A stretch of DNA of 64,000 nt from a virus (IMGVR_UViG_3300030390_001550:26232-90231), one strand, 5' to 3'; counted from the stretch's first letter, positions 6,776 through 64,000 are shown. Translations and numbers: made by a program. The notes: generated by a model not told the origin, from the sequence alone.

Positions 6776-7741
6776 ATGAGTAAAATTTTTATTACAGGTA
6801 TAGCTGGATTTATCGGTTACCATCTTGCAAGAAAGCTATTCTCCCAAGGACATGACGTTTCGGGATTAGACAGCTTTAATGATTATTATGATCCATCACT
6901 AAAGAGGATCAGAGCATCTAAATTGTCTGATTTGGGAATAGAAGTATTTGAATGCAATCTAACCTCTGATGCGTTCAAATTTTATAAAAATGCACATAGG
7001 CTTACTATACCTCAACCGTCTTTAGACGGTGTTGAAACCGTCATACATCTTGCGGCATATGCTGGTGTTAGACACTCAATGTTAGACCCGCATCTTTATA
7101 TCCAGAATAACATTATCGCATCACAAAACTTAATTGACAGGTGTGAGAAAGACGGCGTAAATAGAATTTTATATGCGTCAACATCGTGCGTCATGGCGGG
7201 TAATCCACTGCCTTGGAAAGAGGATGTGAACTTAGGTCACCAATTAAATCCTTACGGCTTTACAAAAGCGACTACAGAATCTCAGTTCAAAACCAGCAAA
7301 ATTAAAAATACTACTGGACTTAGATTTTTTACTGTATATGGTCCTTGGGGTCGCCCCGACATGGCACTATTTGACTTTACTAAAAACATTATTGCGGGCA
7401 ATCCTATAAAGCTATTCAACAATGGAGATATGACTAGAGATTTTACTTATATTGATGATATTGTAAACGGAATCTTACTTCTTTTGACCGCTGATGGCAA
7501 AGAAATATATAACATTGGTCGCGGCGAAAAAGTTAAATTGCTAGATTTTGTTCATGAAATTGAAAATAACTTAAATATAAAAGCGATCAAAGAAATGGTG
7601 CCTATGCATCCAGCAGATACTCAAACTACATGGTCTGATACAACTAAAATAAAAAAACTAGGATATAATCCAAAAGTATCAATTGGTGAAGGAATAGAAA
7701 ATTTCGTAAATTGGTACAAATTTTATTATAAAGTGAATTAA
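6776..7741 (+). CDS. NAD-dependent epimerase, UDP-glucuronate 4-epimerase-like
   Basis: GIAGFIG, DYYDPSLK, HLAAYAGVRHS, YGFTK, RFFTVYGPWGRPDMA, RDFTYIDD. Confidence 0.9.
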   Translation: MSKIFITGIAGFIGYHLARKLFSQGHDVSGLDSFNDYYDPSLKRIRASKLSDLGIEVFECNLTSDAFKFYKNAHRLTIPQPSLDGVETVIHLAAYAGVRHSMLDPHLYIQNNIIASQNLIDRCEKDGVNRILYASTSCVMAGNPLPWKEDVNLGHQLNPYGFTKATTESQFKTSKIKNTTGLRFFTVYGPWGRPDMALFDFTKNIIAGNPIKLFNNGDMTRDFTYIDDIVNGILLLLTADGKEIYNIGRGEKVKLLDFVHEIENNLNIKAIKEMVPMHPADTQTTWSDTTKIKKLGYNPKVSIGEGIENFVNWYKFYYKVN

Positions 7742-7743
7742 AT

Positions 7744-8412
7744 ATGTCAAAAAATATAATACTCCAACATTGGGTTGGTAAATTAAGCGAATTAGAAAAA
7801 TCATCTATTGAAGATATGAAGTCTTATGCCGAATATTGTGGGGCTGAACATAGATTAATAGAGGGATATTTTTTAGATGGGCTGTGTCCACAAGGGCAAA
7901 AACTTCATATGTTAAATGAAGTTTTTGATGATTACGATATCGTAGTAATGTTAGACCCTGATATGTTTACAAACAAACTTAAAAAAACAAAAAATATATT
8001 CACAGAAGAAACTGGTATTGGTAGGTATTTTGGATTACAACCAAAAATTCATAAAAAAGTAGTAATGAAACATCCTATGTTGTCTAATATTAATAATGCA
8101 TTTTGGGGTGGTGCAATATATAGATTAGAAAGAGAAATGAGAAAAAAATTGCGACAGCATATAGTTATTGGTGAACTTTCTCAATTTAATAATGAGTTTT
8201 TTGATGAAGGAATGATGCACAGACTTGCTGTTAAAACGGATATTAAAAATGAATCCAAATATCATATTGATAGAGGTCAATGGGATTCTAGTAGTTATGA
8301 AAATAATAATAATTCTGAAATAATACATATTCGGCCTAGAAGATCATTAGGTGGCCCATGGACTCCAAAAATTCAAATATATAGAGAATTGAAGGAAAGG
8401 GGATTAATATGA
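7744..8412 (+). CDS. putative glycosyltransferase
   Basis: VMLDPD DxD motif, DEG, HI; island context. Confidence 0.6.
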   Translation: MSKNIILQHWVGKLSELEKSSIEDMKSYAEYCGAEHRLIEGYFLDGLCPQGQKLHMLNEVFDDYDIVVMLDPDMFTNKLKKTKNIFTEETGIGRYFGLQPKIHKKVVMKHPMLSNINNAFWGGAIYRLEREMRKKLRQHIVIGELSQFNNEFFDEGMMHRLAVKTDIKNESKYHIDRGQWDSSSYENNNNSEIIHIRPRRSLGGPWTPKIQIYRELKERGLI

Positions 8413-43092: not shown

Positions 43093-45006
43093 ATGCCATT
43101 AACAAATAGTATAGATTTTTCTCAAGTAAATCAAGCGTTAGGCGATTTGAAAAATGTTTCCGATCTTTCAGCAACAGCAGATAAGATGTTAAATTCCGCG
43201 CAGAATTTAGTAAATGTTAAGTCTACGCCACTTGGGAGTGAGGTTGGTGAGGTTGTAGGTGGAATTCAATCTTTAGTTCAAGAAGTAGATTACTTAGACC
43301 CAAACTCTTTAATTGAGAATTTAGGTGTCGCTAAAATAACTTCAGAACTTGAGGGATTTTCAGATTTACAAAAAATTCCTACTGGTCCTGTTATACTTGA
43401 GGCTCTTACTGGGTTGAGTTCAGAGTTATCTTCTATCCCAATACAATTGAACCAAATAATAACTTCACCTGCCCCAGCATCAATTGCTGCTAACTTAGAG
43501 TCTGTAATGGGAAAACTACCTAATGCTAGTGCTTTAAGTAAACTAAGTGGAAATTCTATAGACGCGCTTTCATCAGTAACTGATATGTTAGGTAGTTTAA
43601 CCACCCTCTCACAAGGCATTGGTGGAATTGAAGACAAATTTAAAAATGCAGCAGCAACTTTTGAATCCCAAATAAATAATAATTTAGCAGATGTGAAGGG
43701 TGGTATCATAAATAGATTGTTAGAAAACACCAATCCTGTTATTGGTAATGAGATAACTTCATTGTCCAAAGGTTTATTAAATGCATCAGAACAATTAGAA
43801 ACATTACAAAATATTTTAAATGGAAGAAATGATATAGTATCAGACCTAATATCAGAAAAGATTTCAAAAGCGTTCCCTCTTGATGATATATCAGTTTTAC
43901 AAGGTATGATTGGTTTGCTAGACCCATCTATTACAAATATGGTTAATTCTGGTAGCTTATCAGTACAAAAGAAAACTTTGGGTAATAGGGTATCAACTAA
44001 GACTGAACAAGCATGGAAAAATCCAGATGAGAAATATGTTTTTACAAGGATTCATTCTTATGAAGAAGTAATATCAGAATTTAGAGGTGCTACAAGAGAA
44101 ATAAGTGAGGTGGTTGTTCATTGGAGTGCCACATATATTAATCAAAATATTGGTGCGGAAGAAATTGATCAGTGGCACAAAGCCAGAGATTTTTCGGGAA
44201 TAGGATATCATTATGTTATTCGTAGAGATGGGTCACTACAAAGAGGTAGACCGTTGAATGAGATTGGCGCACATGCTAAAACTGGTGGTCATAATAATTT
44301 TAGTGTTGGAATATGTCTTGTTGGTGGATATAATTGCGCTAGTGGAACTAAAAATCCAGATCAGTTCGCTAATAGCACATCAATAAATAACGCACAGTGG
44401 GCTTCACTTAAAAACTTTTTAAGGGCGTTTTATTCAGTTCATCCGGGAGGTCAAGTTTGGGGTCATAATGATACTGATCCAAATAGTAAAATTGATCCGG
44501 GGGTATCTATGGAAAATTTCGTATTTAAACATTTTAAAAAAAGAAATCTAAGTATTGAAGGACGAAAAAGTTCTATAAGTCCATCAGTAATTGCAACTGG
44601 TATAAGAGATGTTTCAGTATCAAATGCAGTCGCTCCACAGACTCAAGAAGTTATTGAACCTAAAGCGAATACGCGAGATGGTCCTTTTGTGGGTTCACAA
44701 TATCTTGCAGAATCAAAAGGATTTTCTCAACACGCATCCTATCCAGAAATGTATGATTTTCAATATGTAACTGAAGATTGGAAAGATGCAAGCAGATATC
44801 CAATTGGAACAAAATTCACCGAATATACTGGACACCAGTTCTACGAAAAGGGATTTGACACAAATGTTTGGCAAATATGGGAACATTTGGTTGGTGACCG
44901 ACCTGGCTCTAGAATTTTAGTGGATACTAGTGATAGTGAGGAAGTAAATAGATGGGCGCGATTAGAAAAACGTCAAGCACCCATGGGAAGAATTAATAGA
45001 GGTTAG
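43093..45006 (+). CDS. baseplate protein with N-acetylmuramoyl-L-alanine amidase domain
   Basis: VVHWSAT, EIDQWH.ARDFSGIGYHYVIRRDG..QRGRP, GAH, SVGICLVGG, GHND. Confidence 0.85.
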   Translation: MPLTNSIDFSQVNQALGDLKNVSDLSATADKMLNSAQNLVNVKSTPLGSEVGEVVGGIQSLVQEVDYLDPNSLIENLGVAKITSELEGFSDLQKIPTGPVILEALTGLSSELSSIPIQLNQIITSPAPASIAANLESVMGKLPNASALSKLSGNSIDALSSVTDMLGSLTTLSQGIGGIEDKFKNAAATFESQINNNLADVKGGIINRLLENTNPVIGNEITSLSKGLLNASEQLETLQNILNGRNDIVSDLISEKISKAFPLDDISVLQGMIGLLDPSITNMVNSGSLSVQKKTLGNRVSTKTEQAWKNPDEKYVFTRIHSYEEVISEFRGATREISEVVVHWSATYINQNIGAEEIDQWHKARDFSGIGYHYVIRRDGSLQRGRPLNEIGAHAKTGGHNNFSVGICLVGGYNCASGTKNPDQFANSTSINNAQWASLKNFLRAFYSVHPGGQVWGHNDTDPNSKIDPGVSMENFVFKHFKKRNLSIEGRKSSISPSVIATGIRDVSVSNAVAPQTQEVIEPKANTRDGPFVGSQYLAESKGFSQHASYPEMYDFQYVTEDWKDASRYPIGTKFTEYTGHQFYEKGFDTNVWQIWEHLVGDRPGSRILVDTSDSEEVNRWARLEKRQAPMGRINRG

Positions 45007-52043: not shown

Positions 52044-52997
52044 ATGGTTAAGACATTCACCACAAATACTTTTGCAAATGTTTATAGTGATGACTACGAT
52101 GAAGATAAAAGTTTTCAACGTATCCTCTTTAACAATAAAAAAGCATTACAAGCAAGAGAACTTACTCAACTTCAAACTATTATTCAAGAGGGTATAAACC
52201 GCTTCGGAAAAAATATATTTAAAGAAGGTGCGGCGGTTTCTGCTGGTGGTGTTGCAATTAATAATAGATATAGATTTATTAAATTGGATACATCTATAAA
52301 TGCACTACCAGCCAACCCAAGTTCTTTAGTTGGTAAATCTTTTGTTGGGCAAACTTCTGGAGTGACTGTAAAAATATTAGAAGTTGTGTTAGCAGCATCC
52401 CCAGACCCTGCGACAATATATGTTCAATACACAAATACTCTTAGTGGGGCATCTTCAACTGAAACGATTAACGTCACACCATCAGAAGAATTAGTTGAAA
52501 ATAATGGATCAACTCGTTTTATAGTTCAAACAACTAATACGACAGTTAATCCAGCATTTGGTTTTGGAACTAGATTTTCAAGTGCAAGTCAAGACTTTTT
52601 TACACAAGGTTTTTTTGTTCATGCCTCTCAGCAAGAAATAATAATTTCAAAATATACCAATGATATCTCAAAGGTGGTTGGTTTTAGAGTAGAGCAAGAT
52701 ATTGTCACAGTAGATGACGATGTTACTTTATACGATAATCAAGGTAGTGTTCCAAACCAAACCGCACCTGGCGCAGATAGATTTAGAATTAAATTAGTAC
52801 TTACGACTCAAGACCTTATAACATCAGGACAAACATTCGTGTATATCGCCAATGTTGTAAATTCAAAAATAACAGAAAGAGTTACTGGATTAAATCAATA
52901 TAATTTGATTAACGATTTAATGGCAGTTAGAACAAATGATGAGTCTGGAGATTACACAGTTACACCGTTTTTCATAAGATTCGAGGATAGCGCATAA
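52044..52997 (+). CDS. VrlC/DUF4815-like virion protein, N-terminal part
   Basis: Y.DDYD..K.F.RILF....LQARELTQLQTI.Q, FKEG, APGADRF.I.L, RT.DESGDY.V.PF. Confidence 0.8.
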   Translation: MVKTFTTNTFANVYSDDYDEDKSFQRILFNNKKALQARELTQLQTIIQEGINRFGKNIFKEGAAVSAGGVAINNRYRFIKLDTSINALPANPSSLVGKSFVGQTSGVTVKILEVVLAASPDPATIYVQYTNTLSGASSTETINVTPSEELVENNGSTRFIVQTTNTTVNPAFGFGTRFSSASQDFFTQGFFVHASQQEIIISKYTNDISKVVGFRVEQDIVTVDDDVTLYDNQGSVPNQTAPGADRFRIKLVLTTQDLITSGQTFVYIANVVNSKITERVTGLNQYNLINDLMAVRTNDESGDYTVTPFFIRFEDSA

Positions 52998-55900
52998 TGG
53001 CGAAGATTAAACTAAGGGTTTCTCCCGGTAAAGCATATGTTAATGGTTACAAAATACAGAAAAATATTCCTACATTTTTATCTGTAAGTAAAGCAACTGC
53101 AACCGAAACTATTATAAATGATAGTGTTGGTGCAGCATACGGACATTATGTTATTATTTCGGTTTCTGGTCTAAAAGGTATTCCAAATATATCGGAACTT
53201 GGTGTTGTTCACGTTAAGGATAGTGTTGATTGGGGTGGTAATACTGTTGGTAGTTGTAGAGTTAGAGCAATTGAAAAATATGATGAAATAGTAGATTCTT
53301 CTGGTGTAGCGGTGGTCGCATATAAACTTTATATCTTTGATCTCCAAATGAACTCTACAAAATTCTTTTCTACTGATGCAAAGAGTGTTGGTTTAACCAC
53401 TAGTGATTATGCTAACATATATCAAGAAAACTCTAGGTCTATTATTCATGGCACAAACAATAAAGGACTTCTTTTCTCAACATCAAATATCAGAGCAAAA
53501 GCGGTAACAAATCTATCAATTTATCAACAGAAGAAATTTGCGGCAACTCTCTCAGCAGGTTCTACAACATTAACTTTCACTTGTGCATCTGGTGAAGTCT
53601 TTTCTGATATATCCGATTGGATTGTATCAAATGGTTCTGGTACTATTCAATCGCACAGCGTGACTAGTGGAAGCCTTAACTCTTCATCAGCAACTATTAA
53701 TAGTTTAGTCGCTACAGATACGAGTATAGATGAAACATTCACGATTATTGCTTATGTGTATAAAGCATCTGCCACTCTCGCATCAAAAACAAAACAAACT
53801 GGAACAAGAAATTATACGGTTGCTTGGACTGCTGGTGCTACTAATGTCTCAGTGGATTTAAATGAAGTTGATATTATATCTGTTCCAGAAATTAGATATG
53901 GTGATGAAACTGGCGATATTATTACTGATAAATTTATATTGGATAATGGGCAGAGGGATGCCTTTTATGAAACTGGAAAATTAAGATTAAAAAATGGTCA
54001 CTCTTTAGATAACACTACCATTTGGGTTTCATTTACATATTTTGAACATGGTCAAGGAGATTACTTTGCACCTAATTCCTATGTTGGTGCTGGGTTTACT
54101 TATGATAATATTCAAACATATACTATGGAAAATGGCTCAGAAGTTGATTTAAAAGACGTTATTGATATGAGACCATCCAAAGGCCAAAGTGGTAATAATT
54201 TCACTCATTCATCTGCAAGAGTTCCAGCAATTCCGAAACCAACATCTCTTATGACAGGAGATATTGAGTATTATTTGCCAAGATATGATAAATTAATAGT
54301 TCAACAATCTGGAGAATTTAAGTATATTGAAGGAACACCATCGTTTAGTCCAAAATTTCCAGATGTTCCATCAAACTCTATGGAAATTTATCGTGTGAGG
54401 GTCAATCCATTTACATTGAATAGTAAAGATTTAACTTTCAGCATGATTGAAAATAAACGATATACTATGCGTGATATTGGTAAAATTGATAAGAGAGTGG
54501 ATGACTTAGAAGAACAAGTAACACTTTCTTTGCTTGAAGTTGATACTAAAAACATTCAAGTGTTGGATGAAAATGGAAATCCTAGAACCAAAACTGGTTT
54601 CGTTGCGGATAATTTTTCTGATCAAAGTCATATAGATGTAAAAAATCAAGAATATAAAGGGTCAATTGATCCCCAAGAACAATTCGCAAGACCAAAATTT
54701 AGCGCAAATAATATTGGCTTAGTTTATGATGATGCGCTTTCTACTAGAACTACTATAGTTGGTGATAATATTTATTTAGATTACACACATGCTGATTATT
54801 TAGAACAGAGTTTGGCATCTGGAACTGAAAATGTTAATCCATTTATGGTTATAGGATTTAGAGGGCATGTTAAAATGTCTCCATCTAGTGATGATTGGAA
54901 AGAGGTTGAATATCTCGCTGATAATATGATTGATGGTGGTACAAGACTTAATACTGATGCAGCAGTTCTTTGGAATGAATGGGAATGGAACTGGGGCGGT
55001 TCTGATTTAAATGGCCTTGATGTTGGTTCGGAAACAACTCAAACAGGTGTCACAGGTGAGCAAGCATTTACTGATGTAAGTCAATTTACTACTCGCAGTG
55101 GAGCATTTGGTACAAGTCGTAGACATTGGAGAAGAACTACTACAGGAGTTGAAAGAACAAACACTACAGTTGTAAATAGAATTATCGGAAGCAGTACTGT
55201 TAATGAAGTTGTTGGTGATAGACTCGTTCAATGGGCATTTATTCCATTCATGCGTTCTAAAATGATTTTCTTTAGGGCGGCTGGGCTTCAACCAAATACC
55301 GAAATGTTTGCATTTTTTGATCAGATTTCTGTTGCTGATTGGGTTAAACAAGAATCATTTAACGCATATAATTCTCATAAACAAACTGAATATGGTAACA
55401 GTCAAGTAAACGCAACATCTCATCCTAGTGGTTCATCTAAATTATATAGTGATGGTAATGGTCAAGTTGAAGGATCATTTTTTATCCCAAGCACAGATGC
55501 TATTAGATTTAAAACTGGTAGTATAGAATTTAAACTAACTGATATAACAAGTGTAGATGATAGTAAAGCAATAACTACTGCCTCTGGAATCTTTATTTCT
55601 ACAGGAGTATTAGATACTAGACAAGAGGATGTTGAATCAACTAGAGTATTAGAAGTTGTCGGAACAACTACTGAAAGGGTTGATAGAGAAGTCACTGGAT
55701 CAAATACCGTAAGAATTGATCCTCTTGCACAATCATTTACAGTTAATGAAGAAACTGGAGTATTCATTACTAAAGCCACATTGTATTTTAAACAAAAAAG
55801 TTCCAATATGCCTGTTTGGATTCAAATGAGGCCAATGGTAAACGGTTTTCCATCTTCTGATGTAATTCTTCCTGGTTCTCAAAAACTACTAACATCTTCT

Positions 55901-57331
55901 CAAGTTTCTATAAGTGCAGATGCTACTGTTGGAACAACATTTGAATTTGATGAACCAATTTATTTAAAAGGTAATACTGATTATGCTATAGTTTGTTTAA
56001 CAGATAATACTGATTATTTACTTTATACTTCAAAGGTTGGTGAGTTTGTTTTAGGTACTACAGAAGAAAAAATAAACAGACAACCATTTTTAGGATCACT
56101 ATTTAAATCGCAAAATAGCGTAACTTGGGAAGCAGCACAATGGGAAGATATGAAATTCAAATTGGAAAGAGCGTCTTTTGATACAACTGGCGGTATTGCT
56201 ACTCTCAAAAACGCTAATGTACCTGTAAGAGTTCTAAGTAATAATCCTATTACGTTGTTCGCAAAGGGCGCACCCACAACTGTTGTTGGTAAAACAACTA
56301 TTAAGGTAAATGCTCCACATCACGGATTAATTATTGGTGATAGTGTTGTAATATCAGGGGTGGTAGATGCAACATATGGTGTTGCTGTTAACAATGGTGG
56401 TACAGCACATACTGTAACAGAAATTGATGCTAGTAGTTTTGCGTTTGTCTCTGCTGCCTCTGCAATAACTACACCTGCTGGAACTGCGGCAAGCGGAACA
56501 CCGTTATCTCCAATTTTAACTGGTGGAGTTGCTGTAACTATAACACCACAATATTCTTACAATTTGGCTTGGCCTAATATTGAAACTTTATCGCCTATAA
56601 ATTCATCTATTAATTTTACAGAAAAAGGTATTAGTGGAAAATCTTATGCTGGTAGTGAATCTCCATATGTTCAATACTCAACAGCAACAGCACTTATACC
56701 AAAATATAATAACTATTATGCTTTCCCAAGATCAATAGCACATTCTACAAGAGAAGGTAGTATGGGCCACTCTTCACTTCTCGTTTATGGAACCATGACA
56801 ACTACTTCAAACTTTGTTTCGCCAGTAATTGATATGCAAAGAGCATCTGTTAATCTAATTGAAAATATTATTGATAGTCCAGTTTCACAAGCGACTAGTG
56901 GCGGTAGTAAGGTTGTTCTTGATGTTGCAACATCTGGATATGAAACATATATACCAGAAACTGATGCCCTAAACGGATCAGCATCTGCAAAACATATCAC
57001 GAAATCTGTAAGATTATTATCTCCTGCAAATGGATTGAAAGTTTTTGCTGGTATTAATAAACCATCTGTTTGTGAAGTTGAGTTGTATTATAAAGCACAA
57101 ATGGGTGACGTTGAGTTTGACAGTGTTCCTTGGAATTTAGCAACAGTAGATACTGCTATGCCAAGCGATGATGATAATATTACATTTAGGGAATATATTT
57201 ACACTATTGGTGGGGATACAGGCACAATGCCTGATTTTACTAAATTTAAATTAAAAATAGTAATGAAATCAACAAATTCTTCCAGAGTTCCAGCCATCCG
57301 CGATTTAAGAGCAATAAGTTTAGGTGATTGA
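52997..57331 (+). CDS. VrlC/DUF4815-like large virion structural protein, C-terminal part
   Basis: SPGKAYVNGY, LDNGQRD, YYLPR.D, RYTMRDIG, KTGF.ADNF, DPLAQSF, GSLFKSQN..TW, SPVID, DLRAI. Confidence 0.85.
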   Translation: MAKIKLRVSPGKAYVNGYKIQKNIPTFLSVSKATATETIINDSVGAAYGHYVIISVSGLKGIPNISELGVVHVKDSVDWGGNTVGSCRVRAIEKYDEIVDSSGVAVVAYKLYIFDLQMNSTKFFSTDAKSVGLTTSDYANIYQENSRSIIHGTNNKGLLFSTSNIRAKAVTNLSIYQQKKFAATLSAGSTTLTFTCASGEVFSDISDWIVSNGSGTIQSHSVTSGSLNSSSATINSLVATDTSIDETFTIIAYVYKASATLASKTKQTGTRNYTVAWTAGATNVSVDLNEVDIISVPEIRYGDETGDIITDKFILDNGQRDAFYETGKLRLKNGHSLDNTTIWVSFTYFEHGQGDYFAPNSYVGAGFTYDNIQTYTMENGSEVDLKDVIDMRPSKGQSGNNFTHSSARVPAIPKPTSLMTGDIEYYLPRYDKLIVQQSGEFKYIEGTPSFSPKFPDVPSNSMEIYRVRVNPFTLNSKDLTFSMIENKRYTMRDIGKIDKRVDDLEEQVTLSLLEVDTKNIQVLDENGNPRTKTGFVADNFSDQSHIDVKNQEYKGSIDPQEQFARPKFSANNIGLVYDDALSTRTTIVGDNIYLDYTHADYLEQSLASGTENVNPFMVIGFRGHVKMSPSSDDWKEVEYLADNMIDGGTRLNTDAAVLWNEWEWNWGGSDLNGLDVGSETTQTGVTGEQAFTDVSQFTTRSGAFGTSRRHWRRTTTGVERTNTTVVNRIIGSSTVNEVVGDRLVQWAFIPFMRSKMIFFRAAGLQPNTEMFAFFDQISVADWVKQESFNAYNSHKQTEYGNSQVNATSHPSGSSKLYSDGNGQVEGSFFIPSTDAIRFKTGSIEFKLTDITSVDDSKAITTASGIFISTGVLDTRQEDVESTRVLEVVGTTTERVDREVTGSNTVRIDPLAQSFTVNEETGVFITKATLYFKQKSSNMPVWIQMRPMVNGFPSSDVILPGSQKLLTSSQVSISADATVGTTFEFDEPIYLKGNTDYAIVCLTDNTDYLLYTSKVGEFVLGTTEEKINRQPFLGSLFKSQNSVTWEAAQWEDMKFKLERASFDTTGGIATLKNANVPVRVLSNNPITLFAKGAPTTVVGKTTIKVNAPHHGLIIGDSVVISGVVDATYGVAVNNGGTAHTVTEIDASSFAFVSAASAITTPAGTAASGTPLSPILTGGVAVTITPQYSYNLAWPNIETLSPINSSINFTEKGISGKSYAGSESPYVQYSTATALIPKYNNYYAFPRSIAHSTREGSMGHSSLLVYGTMTTTSNFVSPVIDMQRASVNLIENIIDSPVSQATSGGSKVVLDVATSGYETYIPETDALNGSASAKHITKSVRLLSPANGLKVFAGINKPSVCEVELYYKAQMGDVEFDSVPWNLATVDTAMPSDDDNITFREYIYTIGGDTGTMPDFTKFKLKIVMKSTNSSRVPAIRDLRAISLGD

Positions 57332-57332
57332 T

Positions 57333-57542
57333 ATGTTATTTTCTAAAATTCAAGGCGAAAAAAATTACGTTAAAGATTTAGAATCTGGTGCTATAATTAA
57401 TAGTGATTGCGTAGAAATTGAAAAAGCGAAGGTAAGAAAGAAAAAGATGCGAGAAGAAAAAGAAGAATTTCAAGTATTAAAATCAGAAGTGGCAGATATG
57501 AAAAATCTGCTTGTAGAAATTTCCAGAAAGTTAGGTGACTAA
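57333..57542 (+). CDS. conserved T4-like hypothetical protein
   Basis: KD..SGAIIN.D plus coiled coil. Confidence 0.7.
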   Translation: MLFSKIQGEKNYVKDLESGAIINSDCVEIEKAKVRKKKMREEKEEFQVLKSEVADMKNLLVEISRKLGD

Positions 57543-58744
57543 TGGCTAGATTAGAAAATGTTGATCTCAGTAATTCAGTAAATGCTTGGAGAATGAAAAC
57601 AAATCTTACCGCATCTTATGTTGGTGATTTGGATGATTTAAATACCACTGACAGTGGAAGTATTGTAGGTGCAGTAAATTCAATTCAAACTAAATTTGCT
57701 GTTAATGGTGAGGTGCAAGGATTAGCAAGAACTGCATTAGCATTATCAACTGGTGGGTCTGGTACATATTCAAGTTTATCTTATGTAGATTCAGCAGGAA
57801 TTGGTGGAGGGGTTTTCACGTTTACTTGTAATCCACTCACGGCAAGCGATATTCCTAATTTAGATGCTGGAAAACTAACAACTGGAACTATTAATCCATC
57901 ATTAATACCAGCAATAGATGCTGGGGTTATAACAACTGGAACATTAGCAACTGCGAGATTACCATATCTATCTGCAAATCAAACCACTGCTGGGCAATTT
58001 GATAGTGATCGTATCCCATCTTTACACGCTAATAAAATTAATAGGGGAACTTTTTTAATCGGAAGAATACCTGATATTCCTTCTAGTAAAGTAGTGAGTG
58101 ATGGTACTACAATACCATTAGAAGCAATGGACCCATCACTTGTAAGAAATAATCTTTCCACATCATACACTGGTACAAGAGTATATAATGGAACTAGCAC
58201 TTTTTACAATACGGTTACTGTTGGGACTTCTGCTCTTCCTGTTACATCAACATTTAATGGTCAAATAAATCACGCTGGGCATATTATTCCAGACACAGAT
58301 AACTCTTACAGTGTGGGTAGTTCATCATTTAAATACGCAAATATGTATGCGACAACATTTAATGGTAATGCTACGTCTGCTAATTTCGCTGACCTTGCGG
58401 AGAAATATACCACAGATGAAGATTATCCAATAGGAACTGTTATGATGGTTAATTTTGATACTAATGGTGAAACTACAAAATGCGGCAATTCTGGTATTCC
58501 AGTTGGGGTTATCTCAGCAGAACCAGCGTTTTTAATGAACGCTGAAGCAGAAGGACAAGCACTTGCTCTTAAAGGTAGGGTTCCTGTTAGAGTATGTGGT
58601 CAAATTAGAAAAGGTGAGGCTGTTTATACTTGGAAAAATGGGTGTGGTAGTACAGAATTTAATGGCGCACATATGATTGGAATATCACTTGAGACCAGTG
58701 ATATTGAAGATGAAAAAATGATTGAGTGTGTTCTTAAACTTTAA
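57542..58744 (+). CDS. tail fibre / fibritin-like protein with C-terminal chaperone-like domain
   Basis: WR.KTN, IP.LDA..IT.GT 20-aa repeats, ADLAEKY...GTV...GVIS..PAFLMN...ALKGRVPV. Confidence 0.75.
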   Translation: MARLENVDLSNSVNAWRMKTNLTASYVGDLDDLNTTDSGSIVGAVNSIQTKFAVNGEVQGLARTALALSTGGSGTYSSLSYVDSAGIGGGVFTFTCNPLTASDIPNLDAGKLTTGTINPSLIPAIDAGVITTGTLATARLPYLSANQTTAGQFDSDRIPSLHANKINRGTFLIGRIPDIPSSKVVSDGTTIPLEAMDPSLVRNNLSTSYTGTRVYNGTSTFYNTVTVGTSALPVTSTFNGQINHAGHIIPDTDNSYSVGSSSFKYANMYATTFNGNATSANFADLAEKYTTDEDYPIGTVMMVNFDTNGETTKCGNSGIPVGVISAEPAFLMNAEAEGQALALKGRVPVRVCGQIRKGEAVYTWKNGCGSTEFNGAHMIGISLETSDIEDEKMIECVLKL

Positions 58745-58752
58745 ATTGTCTA

Positions 58753-58781
58753 TTGACATTCTAAATTATAAGGTTTATAAT
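58753..58781 (+). promoter_or_regulatory. sigma70-type promoter for rSAM cluster
   Basis: TTGACA-17-TATAAT consensus. Confidence 0.8.
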
Positions 58782-58807
58782 AACTTTAGTCATTAAAGGA
58801 TTTTGTT

Positions 58808-59326
58808 ATGATCACCAAAAGTCAATTCTTGAGTATAATCTCAAGTGATATTGCTTATGAGCAAAATATGGTCTATGCCATAGACGAAAATGGTAGAGAA
58901 CATCTCATGAAAAATTTTGCAGATACACTTGCAAATAAAGATACAAATTCAATAAAAATTGAAAGAATGGAAGCATACAACTCGGAAATTTTTTCCTATT
59001 GTTTAGAACTAGAAGATATGTATGAGCATAATGGCCCAATAACATGTCATTTATTTTATGCTGAAAAAAATGCTCATTCATTCAAAAAACATACTGATCC
59101 AGATAATGTTGTTATATATTGTTGTGAAGGTATGAAAACTATAGCAATGGAAGGTCATACTATGGGTGGTGAGCCAGTATTTACTTTGAAGGCAGGTGCA
59201 ATACTACATATTCCTGCGAATACTCTTCACCAAGCATTTAATGAACATGAGGCACTTACTTTGAGTTTTGGCTTAGAAAAATTTATAGAGGATAAAATGA
59301 ATAGTGTTTTGGTCAGTATACCTTAA
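58808..59326 (+). CDS. JmjC/cupin-type 2OG-Fe(II) hydroxylase
   Basis: SFKKHTD (HxD), EG.K, L.IPANTLHQA, LSFG. Confidence 0.75.
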   Translation: MITKSQFLSIISSDIAYEQNMVYAIDENGREHLMKNFADTLANKDTNSIKIERMEAYNSEIFSYCLELEDMYEHNGPITCHLFYAEKNAHSFKKHTDPDNVVIYCCEGMKTIAMEGHTMGGEPVFTLKAGAILHIPANTLHQAFNEHEALTLSFGLEKFIEDKMNSVLVSIP

Positions 59327-60323
59327 AACCACAGAAACTTGTCAATTAAACTGTAAGCACTGTTTTACTTCTGGTAGCAATGGTGCTAAAATTTATTGGA
59401 ATACTGATAAGATAGTTGATTGGATACATAGATTTCGTGAAGAAAAACCTGCAAAGGGTGATGGTATTCATTTAGAGTTTCATGGAGGCGAACCATTTCT
59501 TGTACCTGTAGGGCAAATGAGAAAGGTGTATGATGCTTGTGATGGTCTTTGGGATAATATGAGTTGGGGAGCCACAACCAATTTAGTGTATAAATTAAAA
59601 GATCAGCATAGAGAATTTATAAAAGGTCCACTTAGAAATAGGTTAGGAACTTCATGGGACCGTAAGATAAGATTTGATAATCAAAAACAATATAACTTGT
59701 GGCATAAAAACGTCAAGTCTCTTTTAGCAGATGGTGTAACTATACGTTTGTTTATTAGTCTTACTAAAGATACTTTAGAAAAAGACCCTATTGTATTATT
59801 AAGATGGTGTAGAAGATTGGGAGTTCAAGAGGTATCTTTAGAGAGATTGACCAATAATGGTTCAGCGCGTGAAGCATCAGAAATATTTCCATCAAATAAA
59901 GAGTTAGATGCTTATTTTTTGAAAATGCACCAGCAAAGTGAAGAATATGGAGCGCGAGATTGGTTTGAAAATGATTTTTTTGAAAATATATATGCTAAAT
60001 TTGAAAAAACTCTTACGACATGTGGTACTTTTTGTAGAGATTGCGAAACAAAACTATTCACGATAAATGGTGATGGTACAATAAGTGGTTGTCCAAATTC
60101 AGCACCAGAATTTCAGTTTGGAACTTTAGATGATCCCATTAAAACTCTTATAAATAGTCCTAGAAGAATAAGAACTATCATTGAAGAAAAAATGAGAAAC
60201 CCCAATTGTCTTTCTTGTCCTGTTGCGAAATATTGTGGTGGCGATTGTCATCAATTAGGATGGGAAGGTGATGTGTGTGGCGCACCTAAAAGTTTAATGA
60301 TGGAATTGGCAAAGAATGTCTAG
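59304..60323 (+). CDS. radical SAM/SPASM maturase
   Basis: CQLNCKHC, FHGGEPF, TNL; SPASM Cys: CRDC, GCP, CLSC, CGGDC, C. Confidence 0.92.
   Translation: MFWSVYLKTTETCQLNCKHCFTSGSNGAKIYWNTDKIVDWIHRFREEKPAKGDGIHLEFHGGEPFLVPVGQMRKVYDACDGLWDNMSWGATTNLVYKLKDQHREFIKGPLRNRLGTSWDRKIRFDNQKQYNLWHKNVKSLLADGVTIRLFISLTKDTLEKDPIVLLRWCRRLGVQEVSLERLTNNGSAREASEIFPSNKELDAYFLKMHQQSEEYGARDWFENDFFENIYAKFEKTLTTCGTFCRDCETKLFTINGDGTISGCPNSAPEFQFGTLDDPIKTLINSPRRIRTIIEEKMRNPNCLSCPVAKYCGGDCHQLGWEGDVCGAPKSLMMELAKNV
60149..60156 (+). promoter_or_regulatory. T4-type late promoter TATAAATA inside rSAM gene
   Basis: Exact motif 177 nt upstream of ORF 60334. Confidence 0.5.
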
Positions 60324-60333
60324 GAGATAAAGA

Positions 60334-61173
60334 ATGGCGATATCAGACCCTATTACAGAAAATCCTGTAATTACAAAATACAGACAGTTTGTGACTGATA
60401 AAATTAATAGTGCTATCGTGTTTGGTGATGATAATGTACCAGACGCATCTGTTGCCAGTTATTTTCATGGCACTAGAAGTGGTGTGACCACTAGTCCTGA
60501 TTTAATAGATGGGCCTATAACAGCATCAAATATTTTTGCTGTTCTATTGAAGGATGTTAACAAATATACTAGAATTAGAAAATTTAATGCTACAAGAACG
60601 GTAACAGGTATTCCAGGTGGCAACACACCAATCCCAACACGCAATAGTTCTTCTACTGCAAATGCAGATGCTGAAAAAAACTTTGCGTGTGAATGGCAAT
60701 CTGCTTTAGATGATGAAATTGCCTCGCGAAGTTTTAGGGGAAATACGCCCACATTTGGTGACCATATTTCAGCGTTCTTCACAAAATATAATACCTATGG
60801 AATTGGTGGAAAGCCTACTACAAAGCAAGAAGCAAGAGACCTACAACCTGCTGCTCAAAGTGCATGTGTTGCAGCAACTCAAAAATATGGCGTAAGTCTG
60901 AGAACTGGTGCTAAAATCAATACACCTTTAAATGTTAGTGGAGTCGGTATTCTAACAGCAAAACATAGTTTTTTTATTGATTCTAGTGATGTTGATCATT
61001 CAATGATTGTAGCAGGAGATTTAATTGATGATGCTGATATGGAGTCATTATTCAATAACCTATATCAAGCATGGAAAAGTGTTGCATTAGACGGTACGGT
61101 AACAGGATATAGCGAGTCTGTGTGTCATTCCAATTGCCACTCTAATTGTCACTCATCAAGGAATAGGAGATAA
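60334..61173 (+). CDS. putative rSAM substrate / virion protein with C-terminal CHSN repeats
   Basis: Ends VCHSNCHSNCHSSRNRR; AGGAG RBS; flanked by rSAM genes. Confidence 0.65.
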   Translation: MAISDPITENPVITKYRQFVTDKINSAIVFGDDNVPDASVASYFHGTRSGVTTSPDLIDGPITASNIFAVLLKDVNKYTRIRKFNATRTVTGIPGGNTPIPTRNSSSTANADAEKNFACEWQSALDDEIASRSFRGNTPTFGDHISAFFTKYNTYGIGGKPTTKQEARDLQPAAQSACVAATQKYGVSLRTGAKINTPLNVSGVGILTAKHSFFIDSSDVDHSMIVAGDLIDDADMESLFNNLYQAWKSVALDGTVTGYSESVCHSNCHSNCHSSRNRR

Positions 61174-61180
61174 ATTTATT

Positions 61181-61834
61181 ATGGATAATTATGTTACAGT
61201 GACTGCCCCTCTAGGTATTGATGACTTGCAGAAATATTTTTCTGATGACAGCATTAATTTTATTATTGATTATGAAAATAGTGAGTTACAAGGTGAGAAA
61301 TTGCTTGTCTATTTAAGCAACTTAGAATTACCTTGTGATATTAAAGTTGAAAGAAATGATTTAGAAACCCTTGCAAAAATTTATCTCCAGTTTCCGCAAA
61401 TATTAAATATTAAAGTTTTAGAAGAATTTATTATTAAGGTTCTTTTGGTAAGAAAAAAACTATCTTTAGAATCTTTAGATTACTATCAAGATTTCATTGA
61501 TGATAATGAAGAAGTGATTGATACTTGGATTAAAAAGTTGGACTCATTGACACTTTATAATATGTATATTATCCAAGATGATGAAATGAAAGATTGGGTA
61601 CTATCCCATAAAGAAGATGATACTGATGATATAAAAGGTATAAATTTTGTATCTGTATTAAAACATGAAGATTTTTATTACTACTACAATGGTTTAGATG
61701 AAAAAAACTTGACCTATTATTCAAAATATTTTAATGAATATATGTTTAATGGGAAAGGTTTATTCGATTATTGGTCCTATGAAAAAAATCCAATTTTCCT
61801 ATTAACTTGGGGAGTTGGTGCAGGAGAAGTTTAA
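61181..61834 (+). CDS. acidic accessory protein of rSAM cluster
   Basis: IDY..S.L.G..LL.YLSNL.LPCD; operon context. Confidence 0.6.
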   Translation: MDNYVTVTAPLGIDDLQKYFSDDSINFIIDYENSELQGEKLLVYLSNLELPCDIKVERNDLETLAKIYLQFPQILNIKVLEEFIIKVLLVRKKLSLESLDYYQDFIDDNEEVIDTWIKKLDSLTLYNMYIIQDDEMKDWVLSHKEDDTDDIKGINFVSVLKHEDFYYYYNGLDEKNLTYYSKYFNEYMFNGKGLFDYWSYEKNPIFLLTWGVGAGEV

Positions 61835-62875
61835 TTGGATTTAGTAGATTTTATTTTAAGAGATAAAAGAGATAAGCAGCAAGAATACACAATTCATTTA
61901 TTTGAATTTTGTAATCTGTCTTGTCCATTTTGCTGGCAAGACCATGACAACATTGTGGGTATTGATACTGTATTGGACAAGTTGGAATCAATAGAAAAGT
62001 TTTTTCAAAAAGAGATGAGGAAACATGTAGTTTTAAACATCATGGGTGGTGAGATATTCGCTGATGAAATTTTTGATGAAAAATTGAAGAACGACTATAT
62101 TGCTCTTGCCCAAGGAATAGTAGACTTAGGAAAAAAATATAAGTTTGAGAGTATAGGAATTAATTGGGTCACTAACCTAGTAATTAGTAAAAGAGACTAT
62201 GTGCGAGATATATTGAAGGCGTGTAGAGATATGGGCTGTAACTCAAAACTCGTAACTTCATATGATCCTAGAGGTAGATTCAATAAACCAAACTTAGAAA
62301 TTTTCAAAGAAAATGTATATGATTTCTGGGATGATCTTGAAGGAATTGGTGTTCTTTTAACCAAGTCTAATATTAAATATTGGTTGACTGATCCTAAAGA
62401 TTTTATGCACGAATTATATCATAAGGGCGTAAAGGTTTATGCTGATTATTACATGCCTGATTGTCAAGCAGAACGAAGTATGCCAACAGACAAAGAACAT
62501 TATGATATTTTCACGCATTTTATAGATAAGTATCCTAAAATTGAGCCTATTCGTTCTTGGATAGAAAATGAGCGTAATGTTGTTTCATGCAGATCATCTA
62601 AATTAGTTCTTGAGGATGGAACCATGTGTTTGTGTGGAAATCTTGTTCAAGAGCCAAGAGATAAAGCGATGTACAAAACAGACATACAGAAGGCTAATAA
62701 CAAACCTATTGAAAAGGCTTTCCTTGAAAAGTATAATTGCTCTACTTGTGAATATTTTCATAGATGTACTCTTGGGTGTTTCATGGCACATGATTATAAA
62801 TATGCAGAAGAGGTTTTTGATGAATGTGTCTATAAAATGACACATAGATACATTGAAAATAAAGGATTAAGATGA
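61835..62875 (+). CDS. second radical SAM protein with C-terminal Cys cluster
   Basis: CNLSCPFC, MGGE, VTNL; C-terminal CRSS, CLC, CSTC, RCTLGC, C. Confidence 0.88.
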   Translation: MDLVDFILRDKRDKQQEYTIHLFEFCNLSCPFCWQDHDNIVGIDTVLDKLESIEKFFQKEMRKHVVLNIMGGEIFADEIFDEKLKNDYIALAQGIVDLGKKYKFESIGINWVTNLVISKRDYVRDILKACRDMGCNSKLVTSYDPRGRFNKPNLEIFKENVYDFWDDLEGIGVLLTKSNIKYWLTDPKDFMHELYHKGVKVYADYYMPDCQAERSMPTDKEHYDIFTHFIDKYPKIEPIRSWIENERNVVSCRSSKLVLEDGTMCLCGNLVQEPRDKAMYKTDIQKANNKPIEKAFLEKYNCSTCEYFHRCTLGCFMAHDYKYAEEVFDECVYKMTHRYIENKGLR

Positions 62876-62876
62876 G

Positions 62877-63512
62877 ATGTTTTTTTATAAAAATGGCGAT
62901 AAATCTCCAATTAGCCAATCCTTTATAAATAGATTTCCAACAAGAAAAAGATTAACTAATCCAATTAAAGAAATTGATATAGAGTATAATGTATGCCATA
63001 CAGTATTTGATTATTTAGTTGATACTAAATTACCACCATGCATTCATTTTTTAGATAATTTTTTGAAAAGTGAAGTGTATGTGTTTAGTGTTCCACTATC
63101 AAGTAATTTATTATCTAAAGTTAATAGTAAATCTATGATGGAAGATTATACTACTCAATTTACTGGATCACCCAAAACAGTAGTAAATAATGATTATGAG
63201 TTAGGATGGATTGGCATAGAGAAAACTAAAAATTATACAATAATGTCAAATATTCAAATAAATGGAATTTATAGAGATTGCTTAACCAGAAGGCAAGAAA
63301 TAGATTTTTATAAAACTATGATCAAGTTTTGTAAAGGTGAAATATTGAATATGCCAATTTATGTGCCTACAGCCGAAACACTATACACACAAATGAAAAA
63401 AAATCCTGCACATCCTGATAGTGCTATAATGGAAACACCTTACACATCTAAGGTTTTAAAGGGGTTCACAAAGATACAATTTATGAACATGGAGTTTTAT
63501 AAAAATGATTAA
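62877..63512 (+). CDS. hypothetical protein
   Basis: 211-aa ORF in operon. Confidence 0.55.
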   Translation: MFFYKNGDKSPISQSFINRFPTRKRLTNPIKEIDIEYNVCHTVFDYLVDTKLPPCIHFLDNFLKSEVYVFSVPLSSNLLSKVNSKSMMEDYTTQFTGSPKTVVNNDYELGWIGIEKTKNYTIMSNIQINGIYRDCLTRRQEIDFYKTMIKFCKGEILNMPIYVPTAETLYTQMKKNPAHPDSAIMETPYTSKVLKGFTKIQFMNMEFYKND

Positions 63513-63999
63513 CGTAGGTTATGTGAATCCAACAGGAATACCCTCAAGAGCAGAATTTAACTATCATTGGATGCTTTTTAAATGTTTTTATGAAGATTAT
63601 GGAAAATATCCAGAAAAAGTTACTTGGGTGGAGCCAATATTCAAATGGAATGAAGTTACAATACAAGATTGTTTGGATAATGTTAAAGGGTGTTCCATTG
63701 TATTTTTTACCAACTATGTTTGGAATTATAAAATTAACCAAAGGATACGAAATGGTCTTGATCCAGATACCATAGTAGTTATGGGTGGTCCTCAACAAGA
63801 CCCTGATATAATAAAAGATTATGACTATGTTGCAGACCCTCTTGCTCCAGGAGAAATATTTGTACAATACTTTCTTGATATGTATCTAGAGGATTCTGTT
63901 GATAAGAAAAAGATTCCATTTTATTTGGGTAGTTCTTTAAAAATTCCTCTTCCATTTGGACATACGAATGTATATAAGAGATGTGAAGATTATTTTACC
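63505..63999 (+). CDS. probable cobalamin-dependent radical SAM enzyme, N-terminal B12-binding domain (3'-truncated by window)
   Basis: Open frame MINVGYVNP...FFTNYVWNYKIN...VVMGGPQ...PGE to window end; GGAG RBS. Confidence 0.65.
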   Translation, partial: MINVGYVNPTGIPSRAEFNYHWMLFKCFYEDYGKYPEKVTWVEPIFKWNEVTIQDCLDNVKGCSIVFFTNYVWNYKINQRIRNGLDPDTIVVMGGPQQDPDIIKDYDYVADPLAPGEIFVQYFLDMYLEDSVDKKKIPFYLGSSLKIPLPFGHTNVYKRCEDYFT

Positions 64000-64000
64000 A

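Follow-up and report, generated by a model that had tools for sequence, protein, structure and literature searches.

A marine T4-like phage, represented by a 90,231-base IMG/VR record (IMGVR_UViG_3300030390_001550; CheckV completeness 44%), carries a series of radical S-adenosylmethionine (rSAM) enzymes around a 279-amino-acid protein with a Cys-His-tailed C-terminus. We analysed the final 64 kb of this record (bases 26232-90231, 64,000 nucleotides; hereafter the window), a stretch that is present in marine metagenomes of several studies. Seven open reading frames (ORFs) occupy its 3' end at the coordinates given in the initial annotation, and they follow, as it had claimed, a tail/fibre module: baseplate hub and wedge families, a giant 1444-amino-acid protein and a fibre-like gene lie directly upstream. 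The cassette is incomplete here because the contig ends inside the last ORF. We hold, with modest confidence, that the window contains the 5' half of a conserved phage cassette dedicated to maturing the tail of one fibre-associated protein. The features of the locus are:

52997..57331, + strand: giant fibre/baseplate-attached protein, 1444 amino acids (phrog_358), after the baseplate hub and wedge genes
57542..58744, + strand: tail-fibre-like protein, 400 amino acids (phrog_19602 tail fibre, E 5.3e-16; phrog_22593)
58753..58781, + strand: sigma-70-type promoter-like site TTGACA-17-TATAAT, 12/12 consensus matches, ahead of the cupin gene
58808..59326, + strand: cupin/JmjC-like Fe(II) oxygenase, 172 amino acids (JmjC_2; Cupin_2; phrog_8014, E 4e-28)
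59304..60323, + strand: rSAM1, minimal radical SAM/SPASM enzyme, 339 amino acids (CX3CX2C; SPASM; phrog_1802, E 4.5e-61)
60334..61173, + strand: Cys-His-tailed protein, presumed substrate, 279 amino acids (own family; AlphaFold2 model)
60619..60918, + strand: its hypervariable middle, residues 96-195, with a helical hairpin insert (region identities; model)
61123..61170, + strand: its invariant tail, CHSN-CHSN-CHSS-RNRR (alignment of 77 sequences; tail-less profile)
61181..61834, + strand: acc217, acidic protein, 217 amino acids, isoelectric point 4.27 (phrog_20767, E 4.9e-52)
61835..62875, + strand: rSAM2, second radical SAM enzyme with a SPASM-like Cys pattern, 346 amino acids (phrog_1802, E 2.8e-41)
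62877..63512, + strand: orf211, 211 amino acids, with no family match at threshold and limited to close relatives
63505..64000, + strand: B12-type radical SAM enzyme, first 165 amino acids, truncated by the contig end (assigned through its full-length relative in locus L004)

The most conspicuous property of the cassette is the C-terminus of the 279-amino-acid protein, hereafter the tail protein, which reads VCHSNCHSNCHSSRNRR. Its three Cys-His repeats are written with different codons at 61123-61158 (TGTCATTCCAAT, TGCCACTCTAAT and TGTCACTCATCA), an observation from which the initial annotation had argued that the repeats are maintained at the protein level. Alignment agrees with that argument: mean column identity among 77 homologues is 17%, and invariance is confined to nine columns of the tail, C264, H265, C268, H269, C272, H273, R276, R278 and R279. 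In the Pfam and NCBIfam libraries used, the full protein matches no family, even at E 10. The tail alone gives a sub-threshold match to the Cys-rich bacteriocin precursor family TIGR04065 (E 0.016, 15.4 bits vs 26).

The viral loci that we compared had been retrieved partly by the tail pattern itself. Because that pattern was among the retrieval queries, we made a control profile from 65 sequences stripped of their last 16 codons; the collection searched with it comprised 1.84 billion representatives, each standing for a cluster at 50% identity. The tail-less profile matched 423 of them at E<=1e-3; of these matches, 227 reach <=1e-10 and 72 reach <=1e-30. Among the best 150 of the 423, 129 have a strict CHxxCHxxCHxxRxRR end and 17 a variant of it (two or four repeats, Tyr for His, one extra residue, or a cut end). 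A tail-type end is absent from the remaining 4, two of which are fragments of <=91 residues. As judged from these sequences, the protein body appears essentially never to occur without its tail. Position 4 of the repeat is also constrained: among the 129 strict tails, Ser fills it 120, 101 and 115 times (repeats 1, 2 and 3) and Asn takes most of the rest; the CHSN-CHSN-CHSS of the window is therefore a minority spelling of C-H-x-S. Individual tail variants (L078/L079 at 7293-8063; P0128, P0139, P0145, P0159, P0165) have four repeats, two repeats or Cys-Tyr for Cys-His, and some terminate in a Gly/Pro-rich extension rather than R-x-R-R. Such variants could reveal which tail positions the enzymes need.

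The tail protein travels with the enzymes. The same genes stand in the same order in six close relatives (L002-L006 and L008), where the cassette continues with the full 555-amino-acid rSAM enzyme, two or three small genes resembling 2-oxoglutarate (2OG)-Fe(II) oxygenases, and a 344-residue SPASM enzyme, rSAM4; a 309-residue rSAM5 follows in L002-L006, not in L008. Across 80 viral loci, rSAM1, the tail protein, acc217, rSAM2, rSAM4 and rSAM5 form a constant core of conserved gene order, while the cupin, the 2OG oxygenases and the B12-type rSAM are variably present. A whole tail ORF is found in 78 of the 80 (it is cut in L009, and the tail pattern detects none in L059). Of these 78 loci, 77 have a match to the rSAM1 family, the exception being L041, where the tail ORF lies at the contig's first bases. 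Tail proteins thus do not commonly exist apart from rSAM genes; had they done so, the interpretation of the initial annotation would, by its own terms, have been refuted. The rSAM1 family lies immediately upstream of the tail gene in 69 of the 78 and acc217 immediately downstream in 71; matches to rSAM2, the cupin and the 400-residue fibre-like protein occur in 73, 61 and 55, respectively.

Homologues of rSAM1 and acc217 also occur, in the same order, in 12 cultured jumbo phages (15 records), and we confirmed the tail in the sequences of Atu_ph07 gp170 and RSL2 ORF068. A tblastn search of cultured phages with the tail protein returned nothing at E<=1e-3, a sensitivity miss given that homologues exist there. 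In the available text of papers on these phages (PMC8066314, PMC11898562), the cupin, rSAM and 2OG genes are accessory genes of unknown role. In RSL2 (L086, 15042-15578) and RSF1, a dihydrofolate reductase gene is annotated within the rSAM block.

The association extends to predatory bacteria. On a contig of a Bacteriovoracaceae metagenome-assembled genome, FeoB is followed by a Peptidase_S74 fibre-like gene, then by an rSAM1 homologue, the tail protein and another rSAM. The tail protein was found in 3 of 20 genomes of that bacterial order, and two of the three have two tandem tail genes each (G014, L095 11883-13119; G013, L096 9367-10558). Both of these also hold acc217 and all four core rSAMs (rSAM1, rSAM2, rSAM4, rSAM5), with a cupin or a B12-type rSAM in addition. 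In both, the kit is chromosomal; in G014 it has housekeeping genes (nitroreductase, PRPP synthetase, ribosomal protein L25) on one side and a Peptidase_S74 gene on the other. This fibre-like gene stands about 3 kb from the kit in one tandem-gene genome and in the contig with a single tail gene, so that the fibre link recurs in a cellular setting. The available text of a report on Bdellovibrio fibre adhesins (PMC10769870) does not refer to radical SAM.

CX3CX2C is kept in each of the four core rSAM families, with 7-8 auxiliary Cys in rSAM1, rSAM2 and rSAM4 and four in rSAM5. The initial annotation had described the first rSAM enzyme of the cassette as SPASM-type, which holds. In rSAM1, CX3CX2C (C13, C17, C20) is kept in 66 of 66 homologues and invariant in the alignment, the C-terminal cysteines C244, C247, C263, C302, C305, C311, C315 and C325 have a conservation of 1.00 in the same set, and the SPASM domain scores 34.8 bits on TIGR04085, above the cut-off of 27. 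Because its core already starts near residue 4, rSAM1 cannot accommodate an N-terminal recognition domain of the RRE/PqqD type. For rSAM2, CX3CX2C likewise has a conservation of 1.00 among 62 homologues, and 7 C-terminal Cys are conserved, 5 of them invariantly; its hidden Markov model scores are below cut-off (SPASM 15.8 vs 27 bits; Radical_SAM 23.5 vs 29.5).

The probable B12-dependent enzyme at the contig end is recognizable only through its relatives. The 165-residue fragment has no family match in Pfam or NCBIfam, and it is 99% identical to the start of a 555-residue ORF in L004. That ORF scores 33.3 bits on Radical_SAM and matches the KedN5 B12-rSAM family NF033712 at E 1.2e-23, with 83.2 bits, far below the cut-off of 700 and aligned on the rSAM core only. 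A distant cassette homologue of this enzyme scores 29.1 bits on the B12-binding domain, against a cut-off of 32.1. The first enzyme of the cassette can be placed on its own sequence: the JmjC/cupin assignment is upheld by JmjC_2 (29.8 bits vs a cut-off of 22, across 34 residues only; Cupin_2 25.2 vs 27.2) and by a 2-His-1-carboxylate triad, H95/D97/H141, that is invariant among 25 homologues. It belongs on these grounds to the JmjC/cupin Fe(II) oxygenases, and its predicted activity is hydroxylation.

acc217, encoded directly after the tail protein, has a predicted model (predicted local distance difference test, pLDDT, 92.3) that gave no PDB fold match in Foldseek, and it belongs to no library family. 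A wide VIA search returned at best Z 4.3 (root-mean-square deviation, rmsd, 2.8; 54 aligned), for residues 1-57 only. A relationship between acc217 and the C-terminal halves of rSAM enzymes, raised by weak VIA rows at Z 3.0, was rejected after hhalign of the acc217 and rSAM1 alignments gave a probability of 0.2%.

The tail protein itself is a long carrier, as the initial annotation had proposed, rather than a short peptide. AlphaFold2, given 77 sequences, predicts a confident alpha/beta fold (pLDDT 88.1; predicted template modelling score 0.84), with the mean pLDDT dropping to 66 and 52 in the last two 10-residue blocks (261-279), so the tail is predicted to be disordered. Foldseek of the full model against the PDB found nothing at E<=0.001, and in BFVD the model retrieved its own family alone, the Atu_ph07 protein included. 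In the ESM Atlas the top clusters are unnamed viral proteins (0.83-0.87), which we treat as a lead only. The best wide VIA match (Z 5.3, rmsd 3.3, 66 aligned) covers only the helical hairpin at 102-192; we dropped fold assignments from such matches, as these helical arrangements are common. The description of the protein as Ser/Thr/Gly-rich needs tempering: these residues make up a moderate 26.5% of it, while the fibre has 30.8% and the enzymes have 12-19%.

Between its conserved fold and its frozen tail, the protein diversifies. Identity to P0006 is 71% over residues 1-95, 34% over 96-195, 60% over 196-263 and 81% in the tail. The hypervariable middle comprises the hairpin helices modelled at 105-130 and 164-190, and common forms of about 190 residues have no hairpin. 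In a 3745-nucleotide contig of a relative about 91% alike (RNA library, run X16; 59650-63402), positions 60696-60976 are swapped for 267 unrelated letters; here the 279-base middle appears to have been replaced like a cassette with both flanks kept, a swap of the hypervariable hairpin.

Substitution rates agree. Using a Nei-Gojobori script on the window and its close relative L004, we obtained synonymous rates (dS) of 0.17-0.45 and nonsynonymous to synonymous ratios (dN/dS) of 0.03-0.13 for the enzymes, with rSAM1 (0.03-0.04) the most constrained gene of the region. The tail protein has a dS of 1.08 and the region's highest dN/dS, 0.34, the fibre a dN/dS of 0.31 and the giant fibre gene a dS of 1.12; values of dS above 1 are saturated and make these figures rough only. 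By these comparisons the body of the tail protein looks to be the fastest-changing gene of the region. Rates and mosaic structure together suggest that the tail gene is exchanged and diversified in the manner of a host-range gene, its tail staying frozen and its enzyme neighbours strongly constrained.

Combining these observations, we propose that the 279-residue protein would serve as a folded carrier whose disordered 16-residue tail, (Cys-His-x-Ser/Asn)x3 followed by Arg-x-Arg-Arg, would be the substrate of the cassette. The first enzyme to act on the tail Cys/His would probably be rSAM1, whose reaction could for example be Cys oxidation or a cross-link of the C-S or C-C type; we place rSAM1 first because it has no leader-recognition domain, aligns with the anaerobic sulfatase-maturating enzyme (anSME), is under the strongest constraint and is the constant upstream neighbour. 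Additional steps would probably fall to the Fe(II) oxygenases (the cupin and, beyond the contig end, the 2OG enzymes), to rSAM2 and two other rSAMs, and to the B12-type rSAM methylase. acc217 probably assists without catalysing anything itself, by holding either the basic tail or the enzymes, and it may hold the R-x-R-R end much as HxsD binds HxsC in the available text on the HXS system (PMC13128918). In host contact, the matured protein would probably operate together with the tail fibres and expose the hypervariable helical hairpin as its diversifying surface. A place on the particle near the fibres is plausible: the position of the gene, its evolutionary rates and the fibre neighbour in bacteria favour it, as does a sentence in the accessible part of PMC6102473 that most virion proteins fall in clusters including 'CDS 170-215', the Atu_ph07 homologue being gp170. 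A predicted complex of rSAM1, the tail protein, three 4Fe-4S clusters and SAM scored 0.00 and 0.01 against a mark of 0.32, and we count it neither way.

Several points weigh against maturation of the tail by the cassette. We infer modification of the tail from the gene neighbourhood, and likewise infer the acting enzyme, the chemistry, the role of acc217 and the place in the virion. No cassette enzyme reaches the cut-off of a characterised maturase family, resemblances to anSME, PapB, DynA and CXXX-repeat maturases amounting to 37-56 bits against cut-offs of 340-450. In 8 of the 78 loci rSAM1 does not adjoin the tail gene. The RefSeq/GenBank records of RSL2, RSF1 and Atu_ph07 label the homologue a hypothetical protein and a neighbour of it a virion structural protein. 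Late expression gains nothing from the T4 late-promoter-like octamer TATAAATA at 60149-60156, inside the rSAM1 3' end and 177 nucleotides 5' of the tail gene: we rejected it as a late promoter, the octamer being at chance level (13 in the window vs 12.0 expected). Finally, Cys and His are classic metal ligands, and an unmodified metal site would also explain their invariance.

This last point leads to an alternative that we consider unlikely and still worth weighing, namely that the tail, with three Cys and three His at a period of 4, is an unmodified metal or Fe-S site, the protein being a metal-dependent adhesin or a cluster or metal carrier for the Fe-S enzymes alongside, which would themselves act on another target. 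Cys/His pairs are standard metal ligands, and the cassette encodes four to six Fe-S enzymes that require clusters. In the accessible part of a survey of marine T4-like viral genomes (PMC5332604), Fe-S assembly genes moreover occur together with up to 12 rSAM genes. However, a hypervariable body that recombines and evolves at fibre-like rates is unexpected in a carrier that serves enzymes. The tail is also a disordered extreme C-terminus whose constraint reaches beyond the metal ligands, to Ser/Asn at position 4 of the repeat and to an equally invariant R-x-R-R without an obvious metal role.

It is improbable, in our judgement, that the enzymes modify a different target (fibre proteins, a small molecule or cofactor, or phage DNA) and that the Cys-His protein is their adaptor, regulator or scaffold. 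Phage rSAM enzymes do act in thymidine hypermodification, according to the text available of PMC8989533 and PMC5889632; fibre genes adjoin the cassette, and the size of the enzyme set differs between lineages around a fixed core. Yet the best resemblances of rSAM1 and rSAM4 are all to peptide or protein maturases (TIGR04083, PapB, DynA, anSME), and the constant neighbour is the tail protein, not the fibre: the bacterial kit keeps the tail gene, with the fibre gene about 3 kb off.

A classical ribosomally made peptide with post-translational modifications (RiPP), in which the long body would act as leader and the 16-residue tail would be cleaved and released as a bioactive or metal-binding peptide (the released product had been suggested initially), has in its favour a C-terminal core beside rSAM/SPASM enzymes, as in RiPP clusters, and the sub-threshold TIGR04065 match, but is very improbable, since the body is a confidently folded domain of 175-290 residues conserved in fold rather than a short leader, rSAM1 has no N-terminal recognition domain, no protease, transporter or exporter family appears among the cassette genes scanned, and the diversifying, hypervariable middle suggests a separate function of the body.

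If the cassette does mature the tail, the consequences are broad. Radical-SAM maturation is known for peptides and a few cellular proteins. In the open literature (subscription journals and supplements were outside the search), we found no paper describing the cassette or the tail, and no described rSAM maturation of a phage host-contact or particle protein. The cassette is common, with 423 clusters, 96 IMG/VR loci and 12 cultured jumbo phages of plant and human pathogens, so a function established in one cultured carrier would annotate thousands of genes. Should the chemistry of the tail be new, a relay of up to six rSAM enzymes would converge on a 16-residue target; should the protein sit on fibres, phage host recognition would gain a new level, and one connected with the way Bdellovibrio-like bacteria recognize prey.

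We also entertain, as a doubtful extension, a host- or prey-recognition device shared by phages and predatory bacteria. The hairpin of this small protein would read the target surface, and an rSAM/iron-oxygenase relay would rebuild the tail into a cross-linked, possibly metal-binding or covalently anchoring end fixed to the fibre. If true, the tail protein would be the first virus-particle protein with an enzyme-driven maturation in RiPP style.

The surroundings of the cassette complete the picture. Homologues of the 1444-residue giant protein are located ahead of the cassette in many loci. Between the giant gene and the 400-residue fibre gene lies a 72-residue ORF (57324-57542) that matches phrog_473, 'virion structural protein', at E 2.2e-12. 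Further upstream, directly 5' of the baseplate hub gene, a possible tail-associated lysin of 637 residues (43093-45006) has a domain of the amidase/endolysin type (phrog_822, E 8.4e-39). The consensus sigma70 promoter proposed at the head of the cassette is confirmed as a sequence match: the 12/12 site at 58753-58781 is the sole perfect TTGACA-17-TATAAT within 57300-64000, and an identical perfect site stands 5' of the cupin gene in 7 close relatives (L002-L007, L009). Promoter-like sites overall are not enriched in that interval (27 vs 34.5 expected). A strong promoter-like TTGAAA-17-TATAAT (11/12) lies at 62709-62737, inside the rSAM2 3' end and ahead of orf211. In RNA libraries from two runs of a single study, contigs that match the window exactly span the giant fibre gene, the fibre gene and the tail gene (60674-61165), with no coverage from about 61.8 kb to the window end; such libraries may contain DNA, and as contig gaps and depths rank nothing, we claim neither an expression level nor silence.

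Among described systems, the nearest in logic is the HXS antiphage system (Li et al., Nat Commun 2026, PMC13128918). In the available text of that paper, HxsA is matured by the rSAM enzymes HxsB and HxsC together with the small protein HxsD; the SHRSS motif undergoes a +8 Da change, HxsC binds HxsD, and the HxsA-type effector has several His-Xaa-Ser repeats plus a peptidoglycan-binding domain. In both systems a folded protein bearing short repeats with His-x-Ser (most phage tails read C-H-x-S) is encoded together with at least two rSAM/SPASM enzymes and with a small partner that is non-catalytic. The differences are several. Phage repeats begin with Cys, occupy the extreme C-terminus and finish in R-x-R-R; the window's H-S-N, H-S-N, H-S-S includes only one His-x-Ser, whereas most relatives have H-x-S three times. 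The phage tail protein has no peptidoglycan-binding domain by Pfam/NCBIfam. rSAM1 scores 31.6 bits on HxsB (TIGR03978) against 370, a relative's rSAM4 scores 32.2 on HxsC (TIGR03977) against 267.9, and rSAM2 matches no Hxs family. The cassette also adds a cupin, 2OG oxygenases and a B12-type rSAM, and it lies beside phage fibre genes, not in a defence locus.

The CXXX-repeat system (maturase TIGR04115; target PF27846, Pfam 38.1), which the initial annotation had named as a precedent alongside His-Xaa-Ser systems, shares with the tail a Cys at period 4. Membership in either fails on score: rSAM1 reaches 37.2 bits on TIGR04115 against 350, over residues 4-66 only. No model of the CXXX-repeat target matches the tail protein in the Pfam/NCBIfam copies used, which may not include PF27846. 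As a lead only, PF27846 is carried by 25% of the members of a neighbouring cluster in the ESM Atlas (score 0.79), 67% of whose members are viral.

Another comparable system is anSME (TIGR03942; PDB 4k36-4k39), which like rSAM1 is a minimal rSAM/SPASM enzyme without a leader-recognition domain, and which acts on Cys or Ser of a folded protein that has no leader. It is the only solved protein to which rSAM1 aligns at full length (4k36/4k37; residues 12-318 to 13-333, E 3e-7). In contrast to anSME, rSAM1 scores 37.7 bits, far below the TIGR03942 cut-off of 349.45, and the cassette encodes no sulfatase. The sulfatase substrate motif is C/S-x-P/A-x-R; the phage tail does not preserve it, position 3 of the last repeat being mostly Gly or Ser (G 59, S 37, A 2, P 0 among the 129 strict tails).

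PapB of the ranthipeptides and the QhpD/QhpC system offer a further parallel, with rSAM/SPASM enzymes that join a Cys sulfur to a nearby residue; QhpD acts on a protein subunit. PapB is rSAM1's second-best NCBIfam resemblance and aligns at full length. Here too rSAM1 lies far below the cut-offs (PapB 41.6 bits vs 340; QhpD family 20.7 vs 453), and unlike the substrates of these enzymes, the phage tail has no acceptor Asp/Glu. Beside these neighbours, we class the cassette as a probable variant of the known kind of system in which rSAM/SPASM enzymes mature a ribosomal protein or peptide.

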